41,130 nt of DNA, from positions 4,611 through 45,740 of the forward strand of contig DUGB01000001.1 of the NCBI GenBank assembly GCA_013331555.1, written 5' to 3'. Numbering within the stretch: the first letter of the stretch is position 1; each line of letters starts with the position of its first letter. A model generated the notes under the pieces. The model searched no databases. It was not told the DNA's origin and was given only the letters and a program-made list of their open reading frames with translations. The translations under genes and the position numbers were made by a program. This document shows positions 5,885 to 32,232 of this stretch, in pieces. The stretch is from Candidatus Woesearchaeota archaeon (GTDB taxonomy: Archaea > Nanobdellota > Nanobdellia > Woesearchaeales > GW2011-AR9).

Positions 5885-5943
5885 TGAGTCCGCAATATAA
5901 AGAGGTTTATTTAAATTTTTCTGTATTAATTACTAAAAAGTCA

Positions 5944-6142
5944 TGAGAAATTCGCTGAAAGTGTCTCACCCCGCCATAAATGGCGAGGCTTGAACATAGA
6001 CACTTTCTTTGATAGGCGAATTTCTGTGACACAAGAAAGCGAAAGCTTTCTGTGCAGAATGTTTTTTACATTCTTGCACCAGAAAAGCAGAAAGACAGCA
6101 TTCATCCCCGATCTAAAGAACGGGGCTTTCTGCTTTTCTCAG
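5944..6142. repeat. Cluster of six stem-loops (palindromic-element cluster or structured ncRNA; strand undetermined)
   Basis: Pairings read directly from the sequence: 5946-5955/6016-6025 (10 bp) enclosing 5958-5966/5998-6006 (9 bp) and 5969-5976/5981-5988; 6030-6040/6045-6054 with a GAAA loop; 6056-6062/6068-6074; 6081-6094/6126-6139 (14 bp) enclosing 6106-6110/6121-6125. Confidence 0.6.
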
Positions 6143-6164
6143 TGTAATTATTATGGTGGAGCAA

Positions 6165-6173: not shown

Positions 6174-6200
6174 GAATAGTAAAAATAAGTTGTTAACACC

Positions 6201-9622: not shown

Positions 9623-10296
9623 GTTCATTAGCAATGATGATCTGGTACGAGCAATCGACCGCCGGTTATCTTGCTGCTTTTTTTGGTGACCTTGCTTCTT
9701 TGCATAACCACCATAAAAGAGAGGAAGAGTTTTCTACGCAGGAATTAGTTGAATACTTGGCGCATGCGGCTACGATGATGCGAGCCAGCGATAGTGGAGT
9801 TGTTCGTGAGATCAGAAAACGTGATGGAAGTGATTGTTTAAGAATAACAAATCTCCTTGCCGCCGGAGTTCTTTTACGGACAAAGCTAGCAATAACTGAG
9901 CCGGACCTACTTTTAGATCAAATGTATGAACGATACGGCCTTGGAAGTGAAGAATATTATTCTCTTTCAGTTCAGCGAGAACAAAGGGGAGTTATAGTTA
10001 CACTTTCAAGAAATGGAATTAGCTCAGCGGAACAGCTATTAGAATCCCGGATAGAACCTGACCAAAGAGAGATAAGTATACAAAAATTAGAAACCGATTT
10101 AACCGCTGCAACAGGACCAATGATGGCAATGGGAAGGGACTTATTTTATCCAAAAGATCAACGAGAAAAGTTAATTGCACCAACCAGTGTACGAATTGAA
10201 AGCCGATATGGAGATTCTATTGATGTTGACCGTACTTTATCAGAAAGAGTTGTTCTTCCCGTGTTTCGTTATATACCAAAGGACACAAATATTTAA
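9619..10296 (+). CDS. Hypothetical protein
   Basis: 225-aa ORF. Its ATG overlaps the dphB TGA (ATGA at 9619-9622), suggesting translational coupling. Confidence 0.5.
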   Translation: MSSLAMMIWYEQSTAGYLAAFFGDLASLHNHHKREEEFSTQELVEYLAHAATMMRASDSGVVREIRKRDGSDCLRITNLLAAGVLLRTKLAITEPDLLLDQMYERYGLGSEEYYSLSVQREQRGVIVTLSRNGISSAEQLLESRIEPDQREISIQKLETDLTAATGPMMAMGRDLFYPKDQREKLIAPTSVRIESRYGDSIDVDRTLSERVVLPVFRYIPKDTNI

Positions 10297-10361
10297 TTGT
10301 TTAGTTGTGTCCTTTGTATATATAACGGACAGAACAGTTTGATCATTTATTTCTGTCCGTT
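10278..10361. terminator. Two hairpins between convergent genes
   Basis: aaaggacacaa (10278-10288) pairs with ttgtgtccttt (10305-10315). aacggacagaa (10324-10334) pairs with ttctgtccgtt (10351-10361). Confidence 0.4.
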
Positions 10362-10375
10362 AGTATAATCCGCAA

Positions 10376-28774: not shown

Positions 28775-29015
28775 CGCCGAGGCTGGGACTTTCAGGCCAC
28801 CTTTCTTTACACTACATTTGGTGCAGCTCACAAAATAAAGCATCCGGCTTCATTTGTGCGCCAAAGTGATTGTTATCACTTTGTGCGTTGTAAAAGATGA
28901 CTTTTGAACCCAGATACCCTTGCGGGAACTAGCTTACGTTCCAGGCAAAATAATTTTTTGAAATATTTTGCGGATGATAGCAGGCTAGCGCACTACCAGA
29001 TTATGCGACCTCGGC
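28775..29015 (-). tRNA. tRNA-Ser(GCU) with two introns (43 nt at or near 37/38, 28935-28977; 114 nt in the T-loop at about 59/60, 28789-28902)
   Basis: Hand-folded cloverleaf: acceptor GCCGAGG/CCUCGGC (7 Watson-Crick bp), U8, D arm GCAU-AAUCUGGUA-GUGC, anticodon stem CUAGC/GCUAG, loop CUGCUA(A), long variable arm UUCCCGCAAGGGUAU (GCAA loop), T stem CUGGG/CCCAG with UUCAAA|U, and G73. Exon plus intron lengths sum exactly to 241 nt. A TATA box lies 26 nt upstream and a T-run downstream. Confidence 0.85.
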
Positions 29016-31076: not shown

Positions 31077-31787
31077 GGAGGTTATTTTATTTTTTCCTTG
31101 TATTTAAAGCCTTCGTTTTCGGAAAGAATGAAATGAGCCACTGGACAAGCTTGGGTGAAGCTTATAAAGCAAATGTTCTTTCAAATGGATATGGAGAAGG
31201 AGAGAGCATTGGCTGTATTTCAAGATAAAAGAATAAGAAGAGTTTGGCATAACAACGAATGGTATTTCTCTGTGGTGGATGTAGTTGAAGCACTAACTGA
31301 TAGCCCTGCTCCAAGACAATACTGGGGCGTTTTAAAAGGAAGAGAAAAACAGTTGTTAACACTTTGTTTACAACTGAAATTGCTTTCGGCTGATGGCAAG
31401 AACTATGCCACAGATTGTGCTAATACGAAGAATATATTCAGAATTATTCAGTCCATTCCTTCTCCTAAAGCAGAACCATTTAAACAATGGCTGGCTCAAG
31501 TGGGTTATGAGAGAATTCAAGAAATTGAAAATCCAGAACTTGCCCAAAATCGGGTCAAAGAATATTATGAACTAAAAGGTTATCCGAAAGATTGGATAGA
31601 TAAAAGATTAAGGGGAGTCGTAATTAGGCAAGAGCTTACAGACGAATGGAGAGATCGGGGAGTTGTCGATGAAACAGATTTTGCTATTCTGACTAATGAA
31701 ATCACCAAAGCAACATTTGGAAAAACAGTTGGAGAATACCGAGAATTCAAAAGATTAACAAAGCCTAGCCAGAATCTGAGAGACCAT

Positions 31788-31846
31788 ATCCTGAGAAATT
31801 CAGGGAATTTCTGGGATGCCAAAAATCACAGAGGTGATTTTTCAGC
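31788..31846 (+). repeat. 59-nt double-hairpin insertion 1
   Basis: Hairpins agaaattc-agg-gaatttct (31794-31812) and aaaaatcac-agag-gtgattttt (31821-31842). The ends are also mutually complementary (ctgagaaatt / gatttttcag). Boundary ambiguity is 2 nt (AT). Confidence 0.7.
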
Positions 31847-31876
31847 ATGACTGATTGGGAACTTATTTTTACTATG

Positions 31877-31938
31877 CAAGAAATGTGAATACTATCACAT
31901 TTCTGCACAGAAAACAAATCGTTGTTGGTTTTCTTGTG
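31877..31938 (+). repeat. 62-nt double-hairpin insertion 2
   Basis: Hairpins agaaatgtga-atacta-tcacatttct (31879-31904) and cacagaaaac...gttttcttgtg (31906-31938, one bulge). Ends caagaaa / tttcttg are complementary. Boundary ambiguity is 3 nt (TGC). Confidence 0.7.
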
Positions 31939-32232
31939 CTTGGAGAGAAAGCTACAACAGACATTACCAAAACAAGAGATGCTCGAGGATTTGAGGAAAA
32001 CAAACGTGCAGCTCAGAGAGGAGGACAAATTGCTAACAATGCAAGAACTGAATTGGAGCAAGAAACCAAGAAGACCGTCGTTTCAAAAGATAATTTTTTA
32101 GGATTAACCAAAAAGAAAAAAGTGGAAACTGAAAAGATAAAAGATTAGAGCTCAGAGGTTAACTTGCACGGATTAAAAGAAATATTTATATAGTCTACTT
32201 TTTTAGTTTCTCTCTAAAATGAGGTTGTTTGG

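Follow-up and report, generated by a model that had tools for sequence, protein, structure and literature searches.

Within the 41,130-nucleotide window analysed here (the whole stretch studied, from contig DUGB01000001.1 of a Candidatus Woesearchaeota archaeon), a Bro-N/DinD-like gene is interrupted twice, by a 59-nt and a 62-nt insert that leave only 30 nt of native sequence between them. Each insert consists of exactly two abutting hairpins, and the second, judged by its sequence relatives, is a member of a dispersed, mobile and mostly extragenic repeat family. The gene is most probably a young pseudogene created by such mobile double-hairpin repeats. The parts of the locus are these:

31185 to 31787, forward strand: exon-like part 1, residues 1-201, with a Bro-N Pfam match and 75-80% identity to intact 280-aa homologues.
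31788 to 31846, forward strand: insert 1, a 59-nt double hairpin of the CCTGAGAAAT...ATTTCTGGG / CCAAAAAT...ATTTTTCAG type.
31847 to 31876, forward strand: native 30-nt micro-exon ATGACTGATTGGGAACTTATTTTTACTATG, encoding MTDWELIFTM between both inserts.
31877 to 31938, forward strand: insert 2, a 62-nt double hairpin scoring 91.9 bits with the covariance model R1 (see below).
31939 to 32148, forward strand: exon-like part 3, residues 212-280 and the stop codon.
31185 to the TGA at 31848-31850, forward strand: the annotated truncated open reading frame (ORF), which extends past exon-like part 1.

With both inserts deleted the gene reads as a joined ORF of 843 nt and 280 aa, whose product matches the Pfam model Bro-N PF02498 (E 5.5e-12, 46.6 bits against a cut-off of 25.6). 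The DinD match, over residues 148-228, is weak and below threshold, and because the DinD equivalog model scores 19.6 bits against a cut-off of 242 the host gene is not a DinD orthologue. A homology search with the joined protein finds more than 100 uninterrupted homologues of about 280 aa, colinear with it at 75-80% identity over 95-99% of length, and so bears out the first-pass annotation, made from the letters of the window alone, in placing two inserts inside one Bro-N gene. Both junctions are gap-free in alignment to intact homologues (71-79% identity; QNLRDH/MTDWELIFTM/LGEKATTDIT), exon 1 ending in ...AAT CTG AGA GAC CAT. MTDWELIFTM is the most conserved motif of the family, and intact homologues such as L006 encode it at the same position in near-identical DNA. 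The nearest intact genes (L006 again) have the same exon DNA with the exons directly contiguous, which confirms the insert boundaries to within a 2-nt slide (+0 to +2, AT, for insert 1; -2 to 0, TG, for insert 2). Since the best loci from species-representative genomes (80 of 80) and the more than 100 protein homologues are all uninterrupted, the inserts are lineage-specific gains. The assemblies of the strain that were fetched, at least six of them independent, carry both inserts at 99.9-100% identity; these alleles diverge by no more than 0.3%, too little for dN/dS or for a comparison of insert and exon rates. The best relatives of the host gene are annotated as Woesearchaeota or Nanoarchaeia, the contig recurs in several groundwater metagenomes, and the window also encodes diphthine synthase, ELP3, an archaeal-type prolyl-tRNA synthetase, FtsZ and ribosomal protein S6e.

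In both inserts the two abutting hairpins span the full insert length, with folding energies of -19.2 kcal/mol for insert 1 (z -3.0) and -19.4 kcal/mol for insert 2 (z -4.2). Both folds, with the two hairpins per insert described at first reading, beat all of 200 shuffled sequences (0/200 fold as well). The family-model unit of insert 2 covers 31875-31938 and reads TGCAAGAAATGTGA..TCACATTTCTGCACAGAAAAC..GGTTTTCTTGTG. The same reading had insert 1 carry a stop codon into frame. The insert does shift the frame into a stop, but the TGA at 31848-31850 belongs to the micro-exon read out of frame and lies outside insert 1.

Insert 2 has relatives in many other places. An exact 20-mer taken from it matches 17 stretches of a metagenome collection, about 15 of which hold full-length family copies elsewhere, and the copies examined there are all intergenic (upstream of GTPase, isoleucyl-tRNA-synthetase-like and endonuclease V-like genes, among others). 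Similarity among non-orthologous copies runs from T(G/A)CAAG to CTTGT(G/A), and the arms of the units start CAAGAAAT, CACAGAAA or CCTGAGAAAT. When 13 distinct copies are aligned, the two-hairpin fold leaves 96.5% of cells paired, and five pairs have changed on both sides (13 cells), a result reached by 0 of 500 shuffles; a terminal-stem fold pairing the element ends shows zero compensatory change in the same alignment. The covariance model R1, built from these 13 copies, matches both strands of the element (91.9 and 53.5 bits), the unit resembling its own reverse complement. It finds many copies in related contigs, five of them in the 14-kb L111 and five in the 3.7-kb L107, and two further intergenic copies in the window:

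6030 to 6078, reverse strand: insert-2 family copy, 49 nt, intergenic (R1 40.9 bits, E 4e-8; fold z -4.9).
28829 to 28887, reverse strand: double-hairpin copy, 59 nt, intergenic (R1 27.4 bits, E 1e-4; fold z -5.6).

No further R1 copies occur in 11 kb of extra flank, and the density of the family ranges from 4 elements in about 52 kb here to as many as 5 in 3.7 kb elsewhere. Deletion of each R1 copy in silico restores an ORF only for the copies in Bro/DinD genes; the others, whose removal restores none, are thereby intergenic. A search of Rfam returned no family for the inserts or for the hairpin clusters. A comparison of filled and empty sites comes from one intergenic locus, at which L111 and L100 have a 62-nt unit after GGCAGGGGTG and L103 lacks it, the two states belonging to different, diverged populations. 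Dispersed copies of insert 2, this filled/empty pair and a relative of insert 1 in another gene uphold the proposal that the inserts are miniature hairpin mobile elements. The accompanying search for other copies succeeded for insert 2, in the window and in metagenome contigs; the relatives seen of insert 1 are the one in L118 and some loose ones.

At one intergenic locus three stages of nested hairpin insertion can be seen (L101 525-700, L103 5735-5976, L111 2590-2870). The loop of a TAGGCAGGG...CCCTGCCTA hairpin measures 10 nt in the first stage and 51 nt, with an inner hairpin, in the next, and then gains an extra 62-nt double-hairpin unit. Upstream of it, ACGCGGAGTATTCCAC...GTGGAATACTTGCG has compensatory changes between contigs. 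Within the window, 4-5 nested or adjacent hairpins cluster at about 5935-6145, upstream of ELP3, and hold the family copy at 6030-6078, which accounts for a 13-mer match between insert 2 and 6047-6059. This cluster looks like a pile-up of hairpin repeats and not like a known RNA, its best Rfam match being far under threshold.

Insert 1 is not matched by R1, but has a relative in another Bro/DinD gene. That gene (L118, from Hainich groundwater) has two 58-nt double-hairpin inserts, A after D153 and B inside codon I173, and deleting both gives an intact, colinear ORF of 280 aa. Insert 1 is 64-70% identical to L118 insert A in either orientation, because the units are near-palindromic; their stem differences are compensatory, and both have the architecture CCTGA.AAAT...ATTT.TGGG / CCA.AAAT...ATTT.TCAG. 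L118 insert B matches R1 in antisense orientation at 33.8 bits, and the window copy at 28829-28887 is of the same CGCACA...GGCGCACAAA...TTTTGTG subtype (43/63 identical to it). Intergenic DNA of L105 and L109 has sequences loosely related to insert 1's second hairpin. On these likenesses insert 1 belongs to the two-hairpin superfamily of insert 2, its own dispersal being less well documented. A third kind of insert, 36 nt long and with an in-frame stop, follows G144 of another Bro/DinD gene (L096-L099).

The ORF running from insert 2 on into exon 3, used as a query, brought up two 83-aa proteins whose first 20 residues are translated insert 2 and whose remainder is about 48% identical to exon 3 of the window. 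Their contig, L094, is partial and carries a diverged Bro/DinD paralogue; the samples from which it comes also contain the strain of the window. Because insert-bearing genes were found via short C-terminal fragments, the sample over-represents interrupted genes and sites in the C-terminal half. All open six-frame translations of the two inserts, combined in one protein query as a census of insertions into predicted proteins, gave 461 word-sharing candidates, among which only the window's own protein scored, so that this search was uninformative. Viral contigs yielded nothing, or chance matches only, to degenerate DNA patterns anchored in the exons around site 1 or site 2.

The host gene is dispensable and often lost, as other DPANN copies of it have ordinary in-frame stops (L120, L122) or frameshifts (L095, L117). 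Bro-N/DinD-like genes adjoin toxin-antitoxin, GmrSD, WYL and reverse-transcriptase genes, and such neighbours mark the gene as an accessory one of defence or mobile-element type. Related proteins are 60-78% identical across archaea and bacteria (loci L006-L085, in metagenome-assembled genomes (MAGs) of DPANN, Methanoperedens, Methanosarcinales, Thermoplasmatota, Bacteroidales, Treponema, Gracilibacteria and Verrucomicrobia). Conservation across lineages that is unusually high for an accessory gene suggests frequent horizontal transfer. RVT_1 reverse-transcriptase genes directly adjoin two insert-bearing Bro/DinD genes in different lineages (L096 3432-4256, reverse strand; L118 1-780, forward strand). 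Another route of gene remodelling is seen in P0173 (158 aa, on a 45.7-kb Woesearchaeota contig), a Bro/DinD homologue that has cleanly lost about 120 internal residues, with ...KAEPFKLWLAK now joined to GLEENKQAAQRGG....

The history that we favour runs as follows. Inserts 1 and 2 are both members of a non-autonomous repeat superfamily of Woesearchaeota/Nanoarchaeota-type (DPANN) genomes, with units of about 50-65 nt made of exactly two abutting stem-loops, A-rich in their 5' arms and T-rich in their 3' arms, each unit a near-palindrome of palindromes. The elements spread at the DNA level, presumably in the form of single-stranded hairpin DNA on which a trans-acting enzyme acts, and would tend to land in the loops of weak hairpins; insertion is precise and without a fixed target-site duplication, and the surviving copies are mostly intergenic. 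In this strain two elements have landed in a dispensable Bro-N/DinD-like gene of defence-island or mobile-element type. With the frame shifted after insert 1, translation would stop at 31848-31850, and the likely product would be the N-terminal 201 residues plus a junk tail of 20, if anything useful is made at all. The gene would have been hit too recently for other lesions to accumulate. That two hits should occur 30 nt apart in an otherwise undecayed gene was at first thought unusual for mobile elements. This objection is weakened by the density of the family and by the second gene with two inserts, in L118; two hits without other decay are what recent activity would leave, given about 4 elements per 52 kb and 97-100% identity among copies.

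A single-stranded DNA mechanism, which we infer, would account for the conserved single-strand hairpins, the seamless insertion and the nesting of units in the loops of other hairpins. The left flanks (CCAT, TATG, AGGT, AGAC, GAAA, GGTG) have no tetranucleotide in common, about ten insert-2 family sites have only TG (once TA) in common, and flanking direct repeats at six sites measure 3, 2, 2, 2, 1 and 0 nt. Of 15 insertion points, 7 lie where the empty site is predicted to form a hairpin loop, compared with a background of 29% for random positions, which is at most suggestive of a preference for hairpin loops as targets. Among 30 window ORFs none matches Y1_Tnp, TnpB/OrfB or a RAYT-like protein, and the flanks likewise contain no Y1 transposase or TnpB.

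Several observations weigh against a pseudogene made by mobile repeats. The paralogue in L094 has a 60/62-identical insert 2 at the identical codon boundary (after ...FSM, before LGE), its site 1 being empty, and no extended target consensus accounts for this same-site copy. Gene conversion was considered for it and rejected, as the L094 flanks beside the insert are only about 65-73% identical and differ right up to the element edge, which leaves any homologous tract invisible. All six Bro/DinD insertions are precise, their hosts are otherwise intact where sequence is available (L094 is partial), and two of the genes have two inserts each, a pattern also expected of harmless inserts. The flanking repeats of 0-3 nt are not those of a classical cut-and-paste MITE (a miniature transposable element with inverted repeats), no transposase or other mobilising gene was found within about 52 kb of this genome, and the loss of gene function is something we read from sequence. 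For the copy in L094, targeting by structure, at a sequence that the conserved protein motif holds constant, is possible, its empty site being predicted to fold as a hairpin (-9.1 kcal/mol) with the insertion point central in the loop. Short-patch exchange between paralogues is also possible, and such exchange does occur among Bro/DinD genes: L094 and L124, otherwise identical contigs, differ by 8 clustered substitutions in about 25 nt of the paralogue's exon 3, which resembles a short tract of gene conversion between Bro/DinD paralogues.

The tests of ALTERNATIVES covered splicing at a bulge-helix-bulge (BHB) motif, bypassing, classical MITEs and elements of the IS200/IS605 type. Removal at the RNA level, the alternative offered from the start, would have a structure-specific endonuclease, different from EndA with its dependence on BHB, cut the pre-mRNA at the hairpin feet, where both exon ends come to lie next to each other, with ligation of the exons and a functional gene as the outcome. 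The six exact insertions, with ORFs intact after deletion wherever sequence is available and two genes bearing two inserts, would suit such introns, as would the same element at the same site of a diverged paralogue (transposed archaeal tRNA introns behave in this way), the position of the insert sites just where a highly conserved gene is most conserved, and the compensatory changes that keep the hairpin stems. The flanking repeats AT, TG, TA and GT self-pair if G-U is allowed and could lengthen a terminal helix, and the multiple tRNA introns at non-canonical positions in related contigs suggest splicing of broad specificity. The tRNA genes with long introns (L107 3487-3637, reverse strand; L101 1290-1408, reverse strand; L115 5526-5635, forward strand) were missed by ARAGORN and found by Rfam, and one of them has two introns, a 61-nt one in the anticodon region and a 27-nt one in the T-arm.

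In a BHB motif the end of the 5' exon pairs over 4 bp with the 3' end of the intron, a 3-nt bulge lies on either side of this helix, and the bulges contain the splice sites. Neither this motif nor a relaxed version occurs at any allowed boundary. Across all six inserts, at all boundaries that give a colinear product, the central helix reaches only 0-3 of its 4 pairs, and an open scan likewise gave no BHB. As a positive control, both L107 tRNA introns were picked up by the same code. This exhaustive test agrees with the earlier manual one, which had found no canonical BHB. Splicing would moreover have no role at the family copies, which are mostly intergenic, the filled/empty polymorphism lies in non-coding DNA, and about 600 kb of fetched DNA contains no interrupted housekeeping gene. 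The host gene is dispensable and often pseudogenised by other routes, and we know of no archaeal enzyme that excises such hairpin units from pre-mRNA. Removal from the RNA thus has no positive support, and we consider it unlikely; it keeps this small probability, and the excision from DNA discussed below a slightly smaller one, because the precise six-insert pattern also fits harmless inserts. A more specific form, a new archaeal class of mini-introns (or otherwise expression-neutral inserts) recognised by their shape of two abutting hairpins and excised from RNA independently of both BHB and orientation, is a little less probable than removal from the RNA in general.

Precise excision could instead take place in DNA, by the enzyme that moves the elements or by slippage across the hairpin feet, and would then toggle the gene on and off. 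Insertion has left no seam beyond 0-3 nt of flanking repeat, the exon ends meet at the base of two hairpins, and the intergenic site has both empty and filled alleles. Those alleles are drawn from different, diverged populations, however, every contig fetched for the strain (at least five samples) has both inserts, and no empty allele of the gene at near-100% identity was recovered. We rate such a reversible switch as improbable, slightly below removal from RNA. Programmed translational bypassing over each insert, of the sort known from phage T4 gene 60 and from mitochondrial byp elements, would suit short, hairpin-rich, apparently mobile gaps that are not divisible by three in length and lie within a conserved gene. 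Its take-off and landing triplets, however, mismatch (CAT against AGC for insert 1, ATG against GTG for insert 2), landing on the sole downstream CAT of insert 1 would set a frame with an immediate TGA, no stop codon comes after insert 1's take-off codon, and L118 insert B splits a codon and offers no matching triplet. Bypassing is very improbable and by a long way the least credible of these readings. Disruption by mobile double-hairpin repeats remains our preferred reading.

DPANN archaea have, to our knowledge, very small genomes and few described mobile elements. Covarying two-hairpin units that come without a recognisable transposase, the inverted-repeat and duplication signature or BHB would make a new kind of small palindromic repeat for archaea. 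The family could serve as a marker for strain-level genome dynamics of groundwater populations. It also bears on annotation, since several deposited MAGs contain split "partial antirepressor" genes that owe their state to such inserts, and it raises the question of which enzyme moves single-stranded hairpin DNA in these archaea. Were removal from RNA true after all, archaeal mRNA would have its first case of splicing without BHB; were the mini-intron reading true, a mobile repeat could colonise conserved gene sites without killing genes.

A few other features of the window touch on these subjects. Between convergent genes, 10277-10362 holds two strong adjacent hairpins (15-bp and 12-bp stems) of a sequence type unlike the insert families, which may be bidirectional terminators or another repeat family. 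A 16-nt stretch of the micro-exon (31860-31875) is an exact reverse-complement match to 6176-6191, promoter-proximal to ELP3 (BLAST E 0.001). A trans guide RNA was considered on this account and rejected, as the sequence is AT-rich and promoter-proximal and forms no BHB; the match is treated as chance. A suspected second split gene at 880-2739, an ATP-dependent ligase, proved otherwise, the upstream ORF being a hexapeptide-repeat transferase, and no interrupted housekeeping gene occurs in the window.

No description of such double-hairpin units in DPANN archaea was found in the literature searched, and the known systems nearest to them differ in instructive ways. Archaeal BHB introns (in crenarchaeal cbf5, or the transposed tRNA introns of Thermoproteales) are likewise short, with exact boundaries and the same position in paralogues, but here the BHB motif is absent at the junctions and copies lie mostly outside genes. 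Rickettsia palindromic elements are also palindromic mobile repeats in protein-coding genes that look otherwise intact; they measure 100-150 nt and are in frame and translated, whereas the present inserts shift the frame or bring stop codons. Classical MITEs (Correia/NEMIS, the SM elements of Sulfolobus) are small, non-autonomous and multicopy, with complementary ends, and can disrupt genes, and the many dispersed copies with filled and empty sites seen here are a feature of MITEs too. Such MITEs have terminal inverted repeats that match a parent insertion sequence (IS) and a target duplication of fixed length; here the ends are complementary over 7-9 nt, but the repeats measure 0-3 nt, the covariation is in internal stems, the units are only 36-65 nt long and no parent IS is known.

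Palindrome-associated transposable elements (PATEs), derived from IS200/IS605, resemble the inserts in having a hairpin at each end, in inserting seamlessly without a constant target duplication and in being non-autonomous. PATEs are usually longer, with subterminal hairpins set back from the cleavage sites and guide tetranucleotides, and they insert 3' of a fixed tetra- or pentanucleotide. Here the outermost nucleotides of the element already belong to the hairpins, so that IS608-type spacing between guide and cleavage site has no room; left flanks have at most TG in common, and no tnpA or tnpB was seen in about 52 kb. The link to IS200/IS605 or PATEs raised in the first-pass annotation is tentative: window and flanks gave no Y1 or TnpB, and the hairpins are terminal. 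REPIN/REP elements (repetitive extragenic palindromes of bacteria, mobilised by RAYT, a Y1 HUH protein) differ in that the present units have no GTAG/CGTC tag, no RAYT-like ORF in the window, DPANN hosts, two abutting hairpins that fill the whole element, and some copies inside a protein-coding gene. The defining sequence and enzyme features of both systems failed here where they could be tested, yet bacterial REPINs and IS200/IS605-derived PATEs are structurally the closest known things. Like REPINs, the units are short, non-coding palindromes of palindromes in many dispersed, mostly extragenic copies, often clustered or nested (as at 5935-6145 of the window and 2590-2870 of L111), in which single-strand hairpin structure is conserved in place of long terminal inverted repeats, and which insert with no classical target duplication.

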